Shown: one piece after another, positions 3,369-33,200 of the stretch
Layout of the letters: each line of letters begins with the position of its first letter
Numbering within the stretch: position 1 is the stretch's first letter
Sequence record: OP870144.1
Reading direction: 5' to 3' (one strand)
DNA: 64,000 nt
From: Escherichia phage vB_Eco_F25
The notes under the pieces: generated by a model
Databases searched by the model: none
What the model saw: only the letters and a program-made list of their open reading frames with translations
What the model was told of the DNA's origin: nothing
Translations under genes and position numbers: made by a program

Positions 3369-4993
<1,625 letters not shown>

Positions 4994-24963: not shown

Positions 24964-27054
24964 TTATCCTTGAACGAACTTGTAAGGCATGTTTGCAATA
25001 TCTATGCAAGACGCAATAATTCCAAGAGATGATTCTACTTTCTGTTTAACATTTGATGAAACAAATGATGCAAAGTCAACTCTATCTTCTATATCACCTG
25101 TCATTGTAACCAATTCACCAGTTTCCATTAAATGGTCTCCGTCATAGATTACCGATTCGGTGAGTTCTTCTGTGGTCATAACTTCAGCTTGAATGAGTTT
25201 TGTATTATTAGATGTTGTTCCGTCATTATTAGAAGCATCAGTTATTTTATTAACTTTGACCATCAATCCGCGCGGTAGAATAACTTCAGCTTCTGTTGCT
25301 ATTCCGAGACTTCCTGGATATACAACATTAACTTTATGAGCTCCATCAATTGCCCATCCTATTTGAACTTTAACGTATTCAGGATTTTCTTTATACGCTC
25401 TTATTTCGCTTGGATTAATAGTTATTCCTTCTTCATTTTTATCAACTGTCAATTCATTACGAGCTTCTGGTTCTAAAAGACCAATACCAGCATGTGTAAT
25501 TCCAAAACGTCCAAAAATGATAGGAGTTAAAGAAGTAGATACAAAATTTCTGAAATAGAACACTTTATTTTTAACTAGTGCTTCGTATATAGGAGCAGTC
25601 ATGCTTTGAGCACGATAAACTGTAATGCCTTCTGGTATACGGTCACCATTTTCAAAAGCTGAATCTAAGTTATTTATAGCAGATTCAATTTCTTTTTCAC
25701 TCATTACATCATATCGTTCTGGATTGTAACGACCCAAAAGAAGATTATTGATGTCAGTATATCCTGAACCACAATACTCTCTAATGCCGCGCTTTTGTGA
25801 TGGAGTATATTTAGAACCATCACGGGCAATAGTAATATCAATCATTGGACCTGCACCAATTCCAGAAAAACTGTAAATCATTCGTTTGAGGAATTTAGTT
25901 TTTGCTGCGTTCCAGGAATTTTTAGTTATTTCTTCCCAGACTTCATCTGGTTGTCCTTTACGATTTTTATTATGATTAGCAAGCCATTTATCTTTATAAT
26001 CTTCAAAGAATTGATTTACAGCTGCTGCGTATTTCTCTAAACATTTTATTGAAGTAGTTGGTTCATTTTTAATTGCATTAAAAATTACTTCTTTAATTTT
26101 TTCTGAAACTTCATTAACCTCACTTTTTGAAAAGAATTTATAGTCATAGTGAAGTTCATCTGCGGTTCCTTCGGCAATAATTTTTGCTGCCTTAGTTTTA
26201 GAAGCTAATGAATTAATTCCAAGCTTCATTTCTTCTGCTTCGGGAATTAAAGGAGCTGTAGCAGGTTTATTGAAATTAGCTGCGGTAGATTCATATTTCT
26301 GGAATAATTCGCTTTCAAATCTAGAAGATTCTAATGACTGACTTTGCGCAATTGCTCTACGGGAAATTTTAACTTTAACGATTACAGCTTGGTCAGAACG
26401 TTTATCATTTTCTTGTGCAATAGATGCTGCAATTGCCTCATTTTTAGTTACTTGGGCTCCAGTATCTTTATTGATATAAACATCACCGACTTTTGATTCA
26501 ACTTTAGTAAAGAGCTCGGTACTAATTTCCGGAACTCCTGGAATGTCTTCTAGTGATACATTTTTGCGATGTATAAGAATATATGCGTACTTTTTATCAT
26601 AATCCCAGAGTTCCTTAAGAAGGACGTATCTACCACCTGAACGACTACGGATAAGTCTATCAGCAATAACTTGAATTTGTCGAGCTTGGCCAGCAGTTTT
26701 AGACTTAAGAATACGAAGCATACAAGCATCAATTTTATATTGACGCATTGTTTGCATTGCAACAGTAAAAACTGAATTGATATAATTAATTGGGCTTGGA
26801 CCAAGACCTTTTAATTTAGCAATTGAACCTTTAGCAGTTAATGTAAAAGGAACAATATGCATCATTTTATCGCCCATCTTTAAATCGCGATTAGTATCAC
26901 CTCCAGATGTATAGGTACATAAACGAAAGCCTGGTTGTTCAATTGCATCATCAACATGAACTGAAAAAATTTGTGGTATTTTCTTCTTTGGATTTAAGTT
27001 TGTAATCGGAAGAGTAGTATCTTCGTCAAATAATTCTGTAATGAGTTCCATCAT
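24964..27054 (-). CDS. alt: Alt ADP-ribosyltransferase (packaged, modifies host RNA polymerase)
   Basis: 696-aa ORF (two adjacent ATGs at start); C-terminal half carries R/S-T-S/E-x-E ART-like motifs; TATAAATA late promoter upstream. Confidence 0.9.
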   Translation of the reverse strand: MMELITELFDEDTTLPITNLNPKKKIPQIFSVHVDDAIEQPGFRLCTYTSGGDTNRDLKMGDKMMHIVPFTLTAKGSIAKLKGLGPSPINYINSVFTVAMQTMRQYKIDACMLRILKSKTAGQARQIQVIADRLIRSRSGGRYVLLKELWDYDKKYAYILIHRKNVSLEDIPGVPEISTELFTKVESKVGDVYINKDTGAQVTKNEAIAASIAQENDKRSDQAVIVKVKISRRAIAQSQSLESSRFESELFQKYESTAANFNKPATAPLIPEAEEMKLGINSLASKTKAAKIIAEGTADELHYDYKFFSKSEVNEVSEKIKEVIFNAIKNEPTTSIKCLEKYAAAVNQFFEDYKDKWLANHNKNRKGQPDEVWEEITKNSWNAAKTKFLKRMIYSFSGIGAGPMIDITIARDGSKYTPSQKRGIREYCGSGYTDINNLLLGRYNPERYDVMSEKEIESAINNLDSAFENGDRIPEGITVYRAQSMTAPIYEALVKNKVFYFRNFVSTSLTPIIFGRFGITHAGIGLLEPEARNELTVDKNEEGITINPSEIRAYKENPEYVKVQIGWAIDGAHKVNVVYPGSLGIATEAEVILPRGLMVKVNKITDASNNDGTTSNNTKLIQAEVMTTEELTESVIYDGDHLMETGELVTMTGDIEDRVDFASFVSSNVKQKVESSLGIIASCIDIANMPYKFVQG

Positions 27055-27074
27055 ATCCTCTCTAGTGTTTATTC

Positions 27075-27082
27075 TATTTATA
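27075..27082 (-). promoter_or_regulatory. late promoter TATAAATA for alt
   Basis: Minus-strand TATAAATA 21 nt upstream of alt ATG, just after hairpin terminator. Confidence 0.65.
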
Positions 27083-27087
27083 AAATT

Positions 27088-27105
27088 AAAGGCCCGAAGG
27101 CCTTT
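27088..27105 (-). terminator. hairpin terminator upstream of alt late promoter
   Basis: AAAGGCC-CGAA-GGCCTTT; on minus strand followed by AATTTTATAAATAG. Confidence 0.6.
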
Positions 27106-27292
27106 AGTAATCTAGTGGTAAGAGAGTACGATATATTTCAAACTTTGGTCCTTTTTCATAGGCATCAAATGTTTCTGTAAATTTATTATAAGCGTATGCA
27201 TCTACAAATTCGAGAATGACTTGTGATACAGAAGTAGAAACATCTCCACCTTCTTTTTGAGCAATGACAATTGTTTCTAAGTAAGCTTTCAT
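27104..27292 (-). CDS. hypothetical small protein between gene 30 and alt
   Basis: 62-aa ORF, start overlaps ligase stop; no recognised motif. Confidence 0.5.
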   Translation of the reverse strand: MKAYLETIVIAQKEGGDVSTSVSQVILEFVDAYAYNKFTETFDAYEKGPKFEIYRTLLPLDY

Positions 27293-28752
27293 AGACCAGT
27301 TACCTCATGAAAATCACCAAATACATCCTCGAATGTATTAGCTTTAGTTTTATCTTCACGTAAACGAATCGCAATCGGAAGAAATAATTTAACGTAATCA
27401 GTACGTCCATCTAATTTTACCCAGCCGTTGCATTCGCACTCTAGAATTTTTCCAATATAATAATTTTGGTTTTCCATAATGCGAGTACGGTCAAGTTCAT
27501 GCGATTTTACGCCGGCTTTATCTTTTAAGCCTGAACCAGCATTTACTTTAATTTTTCCACACTCTGACTCAAGAATAAATCCACCTGCTTTAGTAGGGTC
27601 TTTACGGTGAGGATAAATTCCTACAATTTTTAAATCAACATCAATTACTTCTTTAAATTTATAAAGATTTTTTGAACGAGCATTTTCCCATAATCCATCG
27701 ATATTTTTGAGAATAATACCTTCAAGACCTTGGTCAATATACTTTTTGTAAATTACCTTAGCTTCATCTAGGTTATTTACTACTTGGTTTTCAATTAAAA
27801 TTACTTTATCATAGCCTGATGTCATTTGTTCTAGTTTAGAAAAACGTACATCATATTTTAAACGAAACGCCGGAAGACCGTATATTTCTACCAACGGAAC
27901 ATAATCCCAGACCTGAAACTTCATGCATTGAGCTTCTTTTTCTGAAATAGTTCCCTTTAAAGATTTATTAGCGATTCCATTAGAAGTAGTACGTGATTCA
28001 GCTACTTCGGCGAATTCTTTAGCTTTACTAATTTCAGGATAAGCATCAAAAAGAAAATCTAGGCCTTCTGGCTCCTTTTCAACTTGCTCATGGTATACCA
28101 ATTCGCCATCAATTAACACACCTTCTGGATGAATCTGGCGAGCTTCTGCAGTCATTTTGATTAACTCTTCTTTGAGAAGATCTAATCCTAGATATTCATT
28201 ACCAGCTCGTGATAAAAGACGAACATCATCTAATTCATCACCTCTGACTTCAGCAAAGCACCGAGCTCCATCAGCTTTTAATTGGGCAAAGGCTGGAAAT
28301 TTGATATTCTTATTAATGCCTTTTTCATCATAAGAACTTGCCAGCATTTGAGGTTGTTCAGGAATTAAACCTGGCCAAACTTTGTTTGCAATAGATACTG
28401 ATGCACCACATTCAAGGTCTCGCATCATCACCCGACGCAAAACTTCAACATCATCTTTTTTACCGTCAGCAATATATCCAGTTAATTCCTCAATTGCCGC
28501 ATTTCCGGTCAATTTCCGAGTAGCTAACGTGAATTCAATGAAGTCAAGCATATCGGTAAGAGTCAACATTCCAAAACTCTGGGTAGCAATACCAGGTTTA
28601 GGCCATTTCTTGATATAATACTGTAACCCACGAGAATAAGTCAGACGATATACTCGTTTAAGCAATTCATTATCTTTATTCTTTTCAAGAATTGCTTGCT
28701 TCTGCTTAGTTGAACCAATAGATGCTATTTCGTTCAGAATTTTAAGAATCAT
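27289..28752 (-). CDS. 30: ATP-dependent DNA ligase gp30
   Basis: 487-aa ORF with adenylation motif KADGAR; T4 DNA ligase length and sequence. Confidence 0.95.
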   Translation of the reverse strand: MILKILNEIASIGSTKQKQAILEKNKDNELLKRVYRLTYSRGLQYYIKKWPKPGIATQSFGMLTLTDMLDFIEFTLATRKLTGNAAIEELTGYIADGKKDDVEVLRRVMMRDLECGASVSIANKVWPGLIPEQPQMLASSYDEKGINKNIKFPAFAQLKADGARCFAEVRGDELDDVRLLSRAGNEYLGLDLLKEELIKMTAEARQIHPEGVLIDGELVYHEQVEKEPEGLDFLFDAYPEISKAKEFAEVAESRTTSNGIANKSLKGTISEKEAQCMKFQVWDYVPLVEIYGLPAFRLKYDVRFSKLEQMTSGYDKVILIENQVVNNLDEAKVIYKKYIDQGLEGIILKNIDGLWENARSKNLYKFKEVIDVDLKIVGIYPHRKDPTKAGGFILESECGKIKVNAGSGLKDKAGVKSHELDRTRIMENQNYYIGKILECECNGWVKLDGRTDYVKLFLPIAIRLREDKTKANTFEDVFGDFHEVTGL

Positions 28753-29018
28753 TGTTCATCCTTTAGAGTTTGGTTTACAGCTCTATTATAAATCAATTCA
28801 TCATTAAGCTCAGTCAAAGACCTATGGTACGTGGTTCTAACTTTATTTCCTTGCATCCAGTGCTTGACGTAAATAAAACCTTGCTCTACACATTTTTTAA
28901 AAATTCGTTCGTCTTTTTGAGCTCGGAATTCTGGATTGCATCTAAAAAATTGATTTACGTGACCGTAATCACGTGTAGTATTACCTTCATTTTCATAAAT
29001 AGTGTGAACGACAAACAT
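28749..29018 (-). CDS. 30.1: hypothetical protein (T4 30.1 position)
   Basis: 89-aa ORF co-oriented, overlapping stops/starts. Confidence 0.6.
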   Translation of the reverse strand: MFVVHTIYENEGNTTRDYGHVNQFFRCNPEFRAQKDERIFKKCVEQGFIYVKHWMQGNKVRTTYHRSLTELNDELIYNRAVNQTLKDEQ

Positions 29019-29860
29019 TAGAATGCTCCTTGGAAAATATTATCACCACTAGTAGGTCTATTATACAAATACTCTATGCCACCAGGTTTAATATAGTTCC
29101 ATGTATGAAATGGATGCACATGATATGGATGTGTATAATATGGATGGTATGGATTTAATCCAGGAGTTCTCCAGGTAGTATTCCAACGAAAAGAATCGTT
29201 TTTAATCATCTTTTCAATTACATCTTTTATAGCTTTTTCACTATCAAAACTTTCTTTATTTTCCTTCGATGGAAAAAGCTTATTCTCTACATCATTCCAT
29301 GTATAAACTCGCTGAGCGGTTTTTGGAATACTGTCACGCTCCCCTCGAGCCATCCAATAAACAGGAACATTTAATATTTCACTCGCATGATCGCAGTGGT
29401 GAGCGAGATCGTCAATATAACAAATTACGTTATATTTCTCTTTTGCCTTTTTGAACAACTCTTCTTTTGAAGAATCATGACCACACATCAATACTTCTGA
29501 GAAGGCACCAGGAAAAAGAGCATTCAAATTAAATTGACGATTCAGCAGAGCGTCAATAGAATCACCCAATGCTGTAACAGCTACAAAATTATAATCTTCT
29601 TTTAATTTGTTAATTACGCACAGGGCATCTTTATATGGAGACAAATAGCGAATAAAATCTGAACGATTATACTTTTCGATTAATTTAACACCGAGTTCTT
29701 CATCGCAATTAAAGAGCTTACCAGGAGAAATAAATTTTTCGTCCTGAATCATTTTTAAAATATGTTCCAACGGAAGATTATATTTTTGGGCAAAATAAGG
29801 AAGGCCCGATTGCCAGCTTAAACACACCCCGTCAATATCAGTCAAAATAGTAGGCTTCAT
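29018..29860 (-). CDS. 30.2: HAD-superfamily-like hydrolase with His/Tyr/Pro-rich C-terminal tail (T4 30.2 position)
   Basis: 280-aa ORF; N-terminal DIDGV motif typical of HAD phosphatases; C-terminal PYHPYYTHPYHVHPFH. Confidence 0.65.
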   Translation of the reverse strand: MKPTILTDIDGVCLSWQSGLPYFAQKYNLPLEHILKMIQDEKFISPGKLFNCDEELGVKLIEKYNRSDFIRYLSPYKDALCVINKLKEDYNFVAVTALGDSIDALLNRQFNLNALFPGAFSEVLMCGHDSSKEELFKKAKEKYNVICYIDDLAHHCDHASEILNVPVYWMARGERDSIPKTAQRVYTWNDVENKLFPSKENKESFDSEKAIKDVIEKMIKNDSFRWNTTWRTPGLNPYHPYYTHPYHVHPFHTWNYIKPGGIEYLYNRPTSGDNIFQGAF

Positions 29861-30321
29861 AGAGAGTCTCTTAATAGGTTTAACACATCAATAAATTCAG
29901 CTTCGGTTAGTATTGTATCATCTTTTGTTAGACCACTAGCCATGCTGTGCTTCAAAACTTTTCCTTTCGAGGCTTGTAATGCATCACGAAAACCCCTGTT
30001 TTGGATCGCTGCTTCAAAATATGCATTTGTGTATAATTCTTTCCATGCTGGAGAGTATCTTGAAAATGGAACTCCAAGCCAGAACAACGTGCCACGGTCC
30101 TGAGCTCTAGCATAAGACCTTCCAGCTTGTTGGGCGGCAAGCCCGGATAACCCAAATATACGTCTTTGCTGTTCAACATTTTTCACCTTACATCCTTGGA
30201 GGAATCCTTCGAGACCTCCAAATTGGATACCATCCATAACAAAAGGCCATTGGGCGAAATTACTTAATGCACATGATGGCCATCTAAAATTGCTTCTAAT
30301 CTCTAGCTCAGACATTTTCAA
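29857..30321 (-). CDS. 30.3: NADAR/YbiA-like (DUF1768-like) protein (T4 30.3 position)
   Basis: 154-aa ORF; motif LSNFAQWP...DG..F...E.FLQGCK resembles NADAR family signature (recalled, not searched). Confidence 0.6.
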   Translation of the reverse strand: MKMSELEIRSNFRWPSCALSNFAQWPFVMDGIQFGGLEGFLQGCKVKNVEQQRRIFGLSGLAAQQAGRSYARAQDRGTLFWLGVPFSRYSPAWKELYTNAYFEAAIQNRGFRDALQASKGKVLKHSMASGLTKDDTILTEAEFIDVLNLLRDSL

Positions 30322-30514
30322 TACTTATAATTTCAACATCAGCCCAATGACCATAGCAAGGAAGACGAAATTCAATTGGCCAGTTAGGGTCCTTTTCTAA
30401 TATAATAGACTTAACTTGCGGTTCTTCATGTTCATCGGTATACGGACCTTTATATGTTACTTTATATGTGACCTTAATGTACTGAATTCCAAAAATCTTA
30501 TTAATTATATTCAT
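30308..30514 (-). CDS. 30.3': hypothetical small protein (T4 30.3' position)
   Basis: 68-aa ORF overlapping 30.3 end. Confidence 0.5.
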   Translation of the reverse strand: MNIINKIFGIQYIKVTYKVTYKGPYTDEHEEPQVKSIILEKDPNWPIEFRLPCYGHWADVEIISIENV

Positions 30515-30707
30515 ACTAATTCCTTTAATCCATAGATAGGAGATAATTCATCGCCCATACGAAGGTCTTCATTTCCATCTACCCAGGAAACAATATAAGC
30601 CTCTTTTATTTAAATACCACTCCATTTAAATGGAGGTAGAACCTTAGAAATTAATCCAGGTATACCAACTCCCTTTAATTCAACAGTTTGACCTAAAAAG
30701 AATTTCA

Positions 30708-30995
30708 TTAGAACCTCATCTGAAAGCCATGTGATTTAACATTACCGCCGCCAATATCAGAAATATTAATTTCACGCGCAATTGAAGGGTCAATGTCAAT
30801 TTCACGATTGAGTTTAGTGATAGCTAAAGTATCGCGGCCATTTACAGTACGGAACTCTAAAGGGCAGACTATATTAACATAGTTTTTAATCGATTCACTA
30901 GTAGGTTGCAAATGAGCAGGAAGGTCTTTAGGCGCCTTTGAGAAAACCACTTCACAGAAATTTTTACGGGTATCAAAATAAGTAGTCATAAACAT
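30708..30995 (-). CDS. 30.6: hypothetical protein (T4 30.6 position)
   Basis: 95-aa ORF with GAGGAAAA SD. Confidence 0.55.
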   Translation of the reverse strand: MFMTTYFDTRKNFCEVVFSKAPKDLPAHLQPTSESIKNYVNIVCPLEFRTVNGRDTLAITKLNREIDIDPSIAREINISDIGGGNVKSHGFQMRF

Positions 30996-31011
30996 AGTAT
31001 TTTCCTCAGTA

Positions 31012-31027
31012 AGGGGCCGAAGCCCCT
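31012..31027 (-). other. GC hairpin between 30.7 and 30.6
   Basis: AGGGGC-CGAA-GCCCCT without strong U-tract. Confidence 0.45.
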
Positions 31028-31036
31028 CATTTTATT

Positions 31037-31402
31037 TTAAATATCAAATTCGTTAAGAACTACATCAAAGATTGCTTCAAGATGCTCAGGTTTAGCTCTG
31101 TTACTCAAAATATGACGAATCCAAGTTTTAACCAGAAGCTTACGATTAACGCCATTCCAGCAAGGATGAGTCCCTAAATCGCGTTGACGGAAATCATCAT
31201 CTAATGCGATTTTAAAAGAAGAACCTTCTTTCGTGATTGAAACCGTGATGCCATTTTCAAATCGCATATAAACGTAGTTAGGAGTCATATACTGTTCAAT
31301 TTCGCATACTGATCCATTTTGATGTTTCCAAAGGCAGATAGTATCAATAGAACCTGCAATACCATTAGAAACATATTTACGTTCAAAGTTGATGTAGTTC
31401 AT
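31037..31402 (-). CDS. 30.7: hypothetical protein (T4 30.7 position)
   Basis: 121-aa ORF. Confidence 0.55.
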   Translation of the reverse strand: MNYINFERKYVSNGIAGSIDTICLWKHQNGSVCEIEQYMTPNYVYMRFENGITVSITKEGSSFKIALDDDFRQRDLGTHPCWNGVNRKLLVKTWIRHILSNRAKPEHLEAIFDVVLNEFDI

Positions 31403-31470
31403 TTTTATTCTCCGAGATGTTTAATTGCGGTACAGGTATATAATATCATATCCTGTACCAAAGTAAACAA

Positions 31471-31803
31471 TTATTTTACTACTTTCCAATGTTGCATGTC
31501 AAGTTTACCAACTTTTTTCATCTTCTCAATTAAGCGTTCGGCACGTTGGCGGGCTGTAACATAATACCATTCACCTAATTCATTTTGTTCAATTTTTCCA
31601 ACGATTACTGTATTCAATTCATAAATCCAGCCAGTAAAGAAATTATGAACTTGGATTGTAAAGGTGAAATCTGTTCCCATACCTTCTGTTGTTTCTACTT
31701 CAATAATATCACCTTCAACTGCCATTAAGAACCACATAGTTTCATCATATTTACCATTGAAGCATTTAGTTTTAACCGCAGCGTTCAGATTAATCGTTTT
31801 CAT
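31471..31803 (-). CDS. 30.8: hypothetical protein (T4 30.8 position)
   Basis: 110-aa ORF downstream of an early promoter-like element. Confidence 0.55.
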   Translation of the reverse strand: MKTINLNAAVKTKCFNGKYDETMWFLMAVEGDIIEVETTEGMGTDFTFTIQVHNFFTGWIYELNTVIVGKIEQNELGEWYYVTARQRAERLIEKMKKVGKLDMQHWKVVK

Positions 31804-31810
31804 TTTATTC

Positions 31811-31860
31811 TCCTTTGTTTGTGTAAGATAATACTATCACAAAGGAACTATACTGTAAAC
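31811..31860 (-). promoter_or_regulatory. early promoter-like element with stem-loop, upstream of 30.8
   Basis: Minus strand GTTTACA-17-TAGTAT; 8-bp inverted repeat TCCTTTGT/ACAAAGGA spanning the -10. Confidence 0.5.
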
Positions 31861-31913
31861 AACTTTGTGCAATCTTTGGAAAATAAAAAAGGACTCCCGA
31901 AGGAGTCCTCAAC

Positions 31914-32090
31914 TTATGCTTTCTGCTTACCAAAACGAGAAGCATCATCTCGAAGAACCGCACGTGCTCGGCGCATGATCTTCTCAACAGTTTGATTGAT
32001 ACGAGAGTTCGACCCACGCTTGTAACCAGCGCGTTTAGAATCACCAACTTTCTTTTCAACTGCTTTCTTTGCTTTAGCTTGTTTTGCCAT
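31914..32090 (-). CDS. 30.9: hypothetical small basic protein (T4 30.9 position)
   Basis: 58 aa from ATG 32088-32090 (MAKQAKAKK...); lysine/arginine rich. Confidence 0.55.
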   Translation of the reverse strand: MAKQAKAKKAVEKKVGDSKRAGYKRGSNSRINQTVEKIMRRARAVLRDDASRFGKQKA

Positions 32091-32489
32091 TATAAATTCT
32101 CTTTTAAATGAAAATGCAGGACTTATTGGCATTGCCTGCGCAAGCCCTCAAGGGGAACATAGGTTTTTGAATATTTAACGACCAGGATAACCATAAACCT
32201 CGTCATCATACCTTATAGCTCTTATCTGTTGCACACCGTTAGCTTAAAGGTTCCGGGTTCGATTTCTCGAGGATAAGATATATACTGATGGATATATAGG
32301 CCTTGAGGCGTACTCCCGATTGGCCATCACCTCGGGGTAGCATGCACTTGCCGCTATAAGAATAACATTCAAGAGGTACACCGTAAAACTGCCGGGGTCT
32401 TAAAACTATAATGATTCGCAAATCATTAATCAGACAGTTCGACGGCTCCTCGATTTTAGCTCACACTAAGGCAGTGAATCTCCAATAAA

Positions 32490-32738
32490 TTACTTCAGTG
32501 TTACCACAAAGTGACGAACTGCTTTTCGTGCAGCAGAAGCCAGAGGCTTAGCATATTTAAGTTCATCTTTTTCCTGAAGCTCAGCAGCTAATGCAGTTTG
32601 AGCAGGATTCAGATGTTTGAAATAACGCAGGATTTCAAGAGCTTCGGCTTCAACATCAATAGATGCGCCATAGTTTTCGTGACCATTATTCCATGCGTTT
32701 CGTTGCAGTTCAAGAGCGTGTTGTAATTGTTTAATCAT
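32490..32738 (-). CDS. rIII: rIII lysis inhibition accessory protein
   Basis: 82-aa ORF, T4 RIII length and recognisable sequence; adjacent to gene 31. Confidence 0.85.
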   Translation of the reverse strand: MIKQLQHALELQRNAWNNGHENYGASIDVEAEALEILRYFKHLNPAQTALAAELQEKDELKYAKPLASAARKAVRHFVVTLK

Positions 32739-32864
32739 TTAAAAATTCTCGTTAGAGATTAAAACTCGGTAGTCACGTTCTTCTGAATTTCATCTTCTTT
32801 CGACAGATCTCTCAGTTGTAGACTACCACATAGAATTGAAACTCAATTCATATTATTATTTATA

Positions 32865-33200
32865 TCACTTATAAAGACACGGAATAGCTTTATAGTGACA
32901 GGTAACGAATTTTTGTTTAATTTCTTTTGGCTGCTTAAGACCCAGAGCTACAAAAGGATGCGGAACGTTTCGAATTTGACCAACTGGCAGAGAAGTCAAA
33001 TCACCAACTTCGCAGAAACCTTCAGGAACATCAGGACCAACAGAGTGAATTACACACAGTTCAGGAACTTCACCTTGAACACGTTTACCAATAATAAGTC
33101 CTGATTCTGTGACTTCTTCATCACCGGCTTGCGCAGGTTCAGAAACTAAAATAACATATTCACCGACAGCACGAATTGGTAGCTGTTGTACTTCAGACAT
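32865..33200 (-). CDS. 31: co-chaperonin gp31 (GroES-like, for capsid folding)
   Basis: 111-aa ORF, T4 gp31 length and sequence. Confidence 0.9.

Follow-up and report, generated by a model that had tools for sequence, protein, structure and literature searches.

Gene 30.3 of Escherichia phage vB_Eco_F25 is very probably adfN, a T4-type NADAR gene directed against DarTG1

Within the 64,000-nucleotide stretch of Escherichia phage vB_Eco_F25 DNA analysed here (OP870144.1; hereafter the window), a minus-strand gene was identified, with a probability of about 95%, as adfN (T4 gene 30.3) of a T4-like Tequatrovirus, encoding a NADAR enzyme that acts against DarTG1. The first-pass annotation, made from the sequence alone, had suggested that a phage NADAR protein at this place could counter DarT-type toxins or repair DNA. 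Given that the activity of T4 gp30.3 and its DarTG1 phenotype have been published (PMC11825919, PMC11125620), this proposal is correct, yet the finding was already known from work of 2024-2025. It was reported by Johannesman et al. (Nat Commun 2025) that the DarTG1 resistance of T-even phages maps to 30.3, and the gene was renamed adfN, for anti-DarT factor NADAR (PMC11825919). For the vB_Eco_F25 window, the adfN finding itself is thus a matter of annotation and brings no new biology.

The mechanical listing of open reading frames gave a minus-strand ORF at 29857..30321, with a TTG start and 154 aa, and this was the frame adopted in the first-pass annotation. The ORF and its end at 29857 stood, but the start did not; an ATG at 30315 is favoured, because the annotated start of T4 30.3 is the ATG two codons downstream of the TTG (window 30315) and the homologues in the family alignment (n = 49) start at the same Met. 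The two additional in-frame codons, TTG AAA (30316..30321, minus strand), are therefore probably not translated, as judged from these sequence comparisons. The resulting adfN coding sequence (29857..30315, minus strand) comprises 152 aa and a stop codon, and was assigned to a phage-type NADAR DNA ADP-ribosylglycohydrolase from the ORF listing, T4 identity, PF08010 and the NADAR fold. Its product has the same length and the same start as T4 gp30.3 and is identical to it at 150 of 152 aa, the only substitutions being R107 for the T4 K and M125 for the T4 I, at positions that are variable in the family. When the nucleotide sequences were compared, 20 of the 22 differences from T4 were synonymous in the adfN frame, indicating that this frame is under strong purifying selection and confirming the ORF. 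Moreover, the PF08010 (Phage_30_3) profile was matched across positions 1-138 of 138 with 234.1 bits and an E of 5.3e-70 (curated cut-off, 36 bits). The PF08010 match and the excess of synonymous differences show that ORF 29857..30315 is real and not a chance ORF. An identical protein was found in Shigella phage ESh17, and the 2-kb stretch around adfN matched 721 phage records at up to 96.5% identity, almost all of them Escherichia/Shigella Tequatrovirus-type phages.

As checks on a NADAR/YbiA-type (DUF1768-like) identity for the 30.3 product, the first-pass annotation had named an HHpred/Pfam profile search and a structure prediction. When the window protein alone was compared with Pfam at E <= 10, PF08010 was the sole match and PF08719 (NADAR) was absent; phmmer against PDB sequences returned no NADAR and a single chance match (E 0.57), and an NCBIfam search with the protein alone returned nothing. 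Because these single-sequence searches gave no NADAR match, profiles and structure were needed to establish the link. A homologue database search returned 94 proteins, all of them with PF08010; several carried the JGI name "YbiA (DUF1768 family)", and one had a precomputed PF08719 match. In an alignment of 49 homologues of the window protein, 20 matched PF08719 individually, with a best E of 1.5e-7. The profile of this alignment, searched against the PDB, matched E. coli YbiA (2b3w; E 0.0028) over the very stretch quoted in the first-pass annotation. By hhalign, the same alignment was paired with YbiA alone at 94.7% probability and with an alignment of 30 relatives of the E. coli K-12 ybiA product, representing the YbiA family, at 97.2% probability (E 4e-11, 125 columns); an HMM built from the latter scored all 49 phage-type homologues. 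The profile check thus failed for the lone protein against PF08719 and succeeded with the family profile, and on these sequence comparisons the NADAR homology of the phage 30_3 family is visible at the family level. The AlphaFold2 model computed from the 49 homologues was confident (pLDDT 93.3, pTM 0.88), and the fold predicted for the window protein is that of NADAR, with a helical core and small beta-hairpin sheets. The hhalign probability, the 20 individual PF08719 matches and the model together bear out the NADAR/YbiA-type assignment.

The peptide originally quoted as resembling a NADAR signature, WPSCALSNFAQWPFVMDGIQFGGLEGFLQGCK, corresponds to residues 12-43 of the ATG-started protein (...ALSNFA...DG...EGFLQ..K; 30187..30282, minus strand). 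The resemblance held up, as these residues aligned with YbiA residues 29-83 in both the profile search against the PDB and hhalign. Across the 49 homologues, L17, S18, N19, F20, E36, G37, F38 and Q40 were invariant. Glu36 (codon GAA, 30208..30210, minus strand), the catalytic residue that binds the distal ribose, was paired by hhalign with YbiA Glu48, and Lys43 (codon AAG, 30187..30189, minus strand), which coordinates the ADP-ribose phosphate and adenine, was conserved in at least 90% of the homologues and paired with YbiA Lys55. In T4 AdfN, both E36A and K43A impair the protein; K43A weakens it, and E36A both weakens it in vivo and eliminates its ability to remove ADP-ribose in vitro (PMC11825919). 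The two residues are spaced 7 apart in the motif E-x-(F/Y)-x-Q-x-x-K. Glu36 has been equated with E43 of PnNADAR and E88 of the E. coli C7 NADAR, which have the equal Glu-Lys spacing (E43/K50 and E88/K95, respectively); in both proteins with bound ADP-ribose, the Glu touches the distal ribose and the Lys touches the adenine and phosphate (PMC11543638).

The third catalytic position is reported to be Glu in YbiA-type, Asp in DarG1-type and His in gp30.3-type NADARs (PMC11125620, PMC12945103). In the window protein, His123 (codon CAC, 29947..29949, minus strand), a marker of phage NADARs, was invariant in the 49 homologues and lies in the last beta-strand, predicted at residues 120-123. The hhalign register places H123 opposite YbiA His126, one residue past Glu125, whereas published alignments place the His at the Glu position. 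This region separates the window protein from the YbiA-type NADARs (E. coli YbiA and Phytophthora NADAR; PF08719; PDB 2b3w and 8bau), with which it shares 16-21% identity and unlike which it falls below the Pfam PF08719 threshold. The YbiA family has an invariant E125 in an "EHT" strand and invariant W133, D135, G136 and G137 in a "YWGDGG" loop. In the phage family, by contrast, H123 comes after a variable residue (K122 here), with no acidic counterpart of YbiA Glu125 in the hhalign alignment, and in the window protein a shorter segment takes the place of the "WGDGG" loop. E. coli ybiA itself lies in a chromosomal operon, rhlE-ybiA-dinG-ybiB, described as LexA-controlled (PMC11125620). That the window protein is a YbiA-type metabolite N-glycosidase, serving damage control of riboflavin-pathway intermediates and having no role on DNA, is extremely unlikely: YbiA Glu125 is aligned with the variable Lys122, where published alignments put the invariant His; the clean-up of riboflavin intermediates would bring no obvious benefit to a lytic phage; and the T4 orthologue has a demonstrated DNA-ADP-ribose hydrolase activity and a DarTG1 phenotype (PMC11825919, PMC11125620).

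The C-terminal helix (residues 138-152, EAEFIDVLNLLRDSL; 29860..29904, minus strand) is intact in the window protein, the helix predicted at 138-151 having block-mean pLDDT values of 94-98. In RB69, whose sequence was checked, a frameshift puts the peptide of this helix out of frame; T4 AdfN truncated at the RB69 frameshift point, in an RB69-like manner, is likewise impaired, with reduced activity (PMC11825919). Orthology, NADAR homology and fold, the catalytic residues and an intact C-terminus have therefore all been observed for the window protein, which resembles T4 AdfN in having E36, K43, H123, the C-terminal helix and the same neighbours on both sides. It differs from DarG1, the NADAR antitoxin of DarTG1 (BC4488 family; Geobacter lovleyi NADAR, PDB 8bat), in several respects. 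Whereas DarG1 has an N-terminal extension and uses Asp as the catalytic residue of its last strand, the window protein consists of the core only (152 aa, first strand at residues 3-6) and has His123 instead. The same difference between DarG1 and phage NADAR is given in the literature (PMC11825919, PMC12945103), where the phage NADAR is described as the core domain alone (PMC12945103). Moreover, the window gene has no adjacent DarT1 gene, and its product is accordingly an orphan. DarG1 cannot be replaced by T4 AdfN in uninfected cells (PMC11125620, PMC11825919).

The function of AdfN has been established with the T4 protein, which proved both necessary for overcoming DarTG1 and sufficient for it. 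Deletion of adfN from T4 or T2 abolished plaquing on DarTG1 hosts, ectopic expression of adfN rescued RB69, and purified AdfN stripped ADP-ribose from DarT1-modified DNA; AdfN did not counter DarTG2 (PMC11825919). Independently, T4 gp30.3 was shown to hydrolyse guanosine-ADPr in oligonucleotides, but not thymidine-ADPr (Toxins 2024; PMC11125620), and guanosine-ADPr was hydrolysed by all NADARs tested in a later study, including that of T4 (Toxins 2026; PMC12945103). Enzymatic activity, guanine specificity and DarTG1 counter-defence would carry over to the window protein by analogy with these experiments on a protein 99% identical to it. Before 2023, it had been predicted on comparative grounds that phage NADARs degrade soluble ADP-ribose derivatives, such as immune signals or toxic by-products, and not macromolecular adducts (PMC9503650), and in one member of the family the NADAR protein is joined to a YpsA-type SLOG domain, SLOG domains of this type being linked to NAD/ADPr derivatives. 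However, what the direct assays measured was the loss of ADP-ribose from DNA, the phenotype depends specifically on the DNA-modifying DarT1 (PMC11825919, PMC11125620), and AdfN is not known to counter any signalling-based defence, so that soluble derivatives are highly unlikely as its principal substrates. The methods of the Toxins 2024 study describe the cloned protein as "T4 phage NADAR (gp30.3; residues 1-208)" (PMC11125620), whereas the T4 30.3 CDS (NC_000866, 10308..10766) encodes 152 aa; the 1-208 construct may have included added sequence or have been derived from a longer homologue.

Applied to vB_Eco_F25, the DNA-repair function would operate as follows. On infection, host DarTG1 would release DarT1, which would ADP-ribosylate guanine (N2) in the phage DNA and block replication. 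AdfN, probably made early in infection to judge by the T4 gene neighbourhood, would bind the ADP-ribose, with Lys43 on the phosphate and adenine and with Glu36 and His123 flanking the distal ribose, and would cleave the ribose-guanine N-glycosidic bond, leaving a clean DNA template and free ADP-ribose. AdfN would in this way serve as an "orphan antitoxin" that mimics DarG1 but has no partner toxin. Consistent with this, Pfam scans of the ORFs flanking adfN (neighbours 30.4 and 30.2) detected no DarT domain. Because the window contains neither a DarT gene nor host information, we infer the selective pressure on the phage. The intact adfN allele predicts that vB_Eco_F25 is resistant to DarTG1 through adfN, by analogy with T4, which could matter when phages are selected for therapeutic use against E. 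coli or Shigella that carry DarTG1. In broader terms, adfN provides a lytic phage with a stand-alone enzyme of bacterial antitoxin type for the chemical repair of its own DNA during infection, and the work on AdfN has given a function to one of about 100 T4 genes that previously had none. Other phage orphan antitoxin-like hydrolases that, like AdfN, erase DarT marks from DNA are AdfN-Bas32 (T5-like), AdfN-Bas60 (Vequintavirinae) and AdfM/Tk.4 (PMC11825919, bioRxiv 10.1101/2025.11.20.689424); the first two belong to other NADAR clades and function without a T-even background, whereas AdfM/Tk.4, a T4 macrodomain of unrelated fold, counters the thymidine-modifying DarTG2.

The gene order around adfN, 30.4-30.3-30.2-30.1-ligase-alt.1-alt, is as in T4, with the 30.1 product belonging to DUF3045. 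The 30.4 stop and the adfN start overlap (ATGTCTGA; 30308..30315, minus strand), which suggests that the two are translationally coupled in a single early transcription unit, and the adfN stop overlaps the 30.2 start in an ATGA (29857..29860, minus strand), the same as in T4. When 27000-33000 was scanned for sigma-70 promoters, 20 sites were detected where 21.6 were expected, so that the scan was uninformative on the transcription unit. In the same interval, 5 terminator-like sites were found (3.3 expected), one of them just downstream of alt.1 at 27106-27087 on the minus strand. The proximity of an ADP-ribosyltransferase gene, also pointed out on first pass, was confirmed: Alt is encoded at 24964..27054 (minus strand; 696 aa; PF03496, E 1.8e-37), and alt lies about 2.8 kb downstream of adfN on the same strand.

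This proximity bears on whether the main job of AdfN might be to reverse or edit the marks set on protein or RNA by the phage's own ADP-ribosyltransferases (Alt, ModA and ModB) instead of countering DarT1. Acinetobacter phage Melin retains the 30.3-30.2-ligase-ART arrangement, a comparative survey has NADAR genes of T4-like phages expressed early along with ARTs (PMC9503650), and NADARs also remove ADP-ribose from RNA guanosine (PMC12945103). However, the gene neighbourhoods of many homologues are of quite another kind and contain no ART, and we found no literature report in which T4 AdfN was assayed on the arginine-linked protein marks of T4 ARTs. Furthermore, adfN is dispensable without DarTG1 and essential only in its presence (PMC11825919), and the HIDEN-SEQ transposon preprint reports that insertions in 30.3/adfN were lost on DarTG1 hosts only (bioRxiv 10.1101/2025.11.20.689424). 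Such a main role is very unlikely, and countering DarT1 is retained as the function of AdfN.

Several minor features of the neighbourhood were also recorded. Alt has 696 aa in the window versus 682 aa from the T4 coordinates, and the product of alt.1 (27104..27292, minus strand) matched PF24647 "Phage blade protein" (E 1.9e-29). Gene 30.5 (30511..30708, minus strand) has an in-frame TAA at 30610..30612 where T4 has CAA (Gln33), leaving a 32-aa ORF; the remainder hardly differs from T4 (3 of 211 bases), and the TAA has arisen either by recent nonsense mutation or through an error in sequencing. Inside adfN, a counterpart of the annotated T4 30.3' was found in the +1 frame (29952..30179, minus strand; 75-aa ORF). 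Its product is 81% identical to that of T4, as compared with 99% for AdfN; of the 15 nucleotide differences in the 30.3'/adfN overlap, every one alters the 30.3' protein but 14 leave AdfN unchanged, and in RB69 the 30.3' frame is interrupted by an internal stop. A second gene product was accordingly rejected, there being no sign of protein-level selection; 30.3' looks like a frame passively carried by adfN, with no protein under selection.

Why the T4-type enzyme works fully only in T-even infection is a question already raised in the literature. T4 AdfN did not rescue uninfected E. coli from DarT1, and its rescue of non-T-even phages was partial only (PMC11125620, PMC11825919); hydrolase activity alone therefore does not account for its performance in vivo. 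Hydroxymethylation and glucosylation of the DNA have been excluded as the cause of the T-even dependence (PMC11125620, PMC11825919), and a specialisation of AdfN for hydroxymethyl-cytosine DNA was rejected using T4-GT7 (PMC11825919). It appears improbable that full activity of T-even AdfN needs a second phage component, for which gp30.2 is a candidate, or that AdfN acts in vivo on an additional substrate, for example RNA guanosine-ADPr. The gene for gp30.2 (29018..29860, minus strand; 280 aa) starts in the ATGA overlap, and its product has HAD-phosphatase motif I (DIDGV, residues 8-12) and a His/Pro/Tyr-rich tail; some depositors label its homologues HAD-like, and a weak match to the 5'(3')-deoxyribonucleotidase 2jao was obtained (E 1.1). 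By tblastn, 30.2 adjoins adfN in T4, RB69, WG01, PEC04 and Acinetobacter phage Melin, and at 8 of the 12 loci inspected, the 4-6 kb around the NADAR gene yielded no 30.2 homologue. In the available passages of the T4 transposon-screen preprint, 30.2 is not mentioned (bioRxiv 10.1101/2025.11.20.689424). Taken together, gp30.2 is a possible partner of AdfN, with little support. At one of the loci, a neighbour resembling the T5 dNMPase was considered as a relative of gp30.2 and proved unrelated to it.

The distribution of the family was assessed by tblastn: 1,510 of 50,697 phage records gave a match to the gene, which was near full length in 1,503; about half of the positive records were at least 80% identical, and 780 were below 60%. 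Klebsiella, Aeromonas, Acinetobacter, Vibrio and Rhizobium are among the hosts of the phages with the gene. When 1.84 billion cluster representatives were searched with a profile, 1,668 relatives were obtained at E <= 1e-3. In the loci examined, the distant copies are surrounded by small phage genes and have no DarT close by, which fits the "orphan" description. In Klebsiella phage Mineola (Jiaodavirus), a gp30.3-like gene (4001..4450) lies inside a tRNA cluster, with tRNA genes on both sides and far from ligase and 30.2, indicating that it moves without being tied to its T4 neighbours. Longer predicted proteins (P0215-P0362) from outside the T4-like phages also contained the gp30.3-type NADAR domain. 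BspA-type leucine-rich repeats were present in 3 of 20 proteins checked, and other partner domains in predicted proteins were YpsA SLOG, GDSL hydrolase, cupin, LGT and an FtsW-like membrane domain; one predicted protein, P0215, carries two or three tandem NADAR copies.
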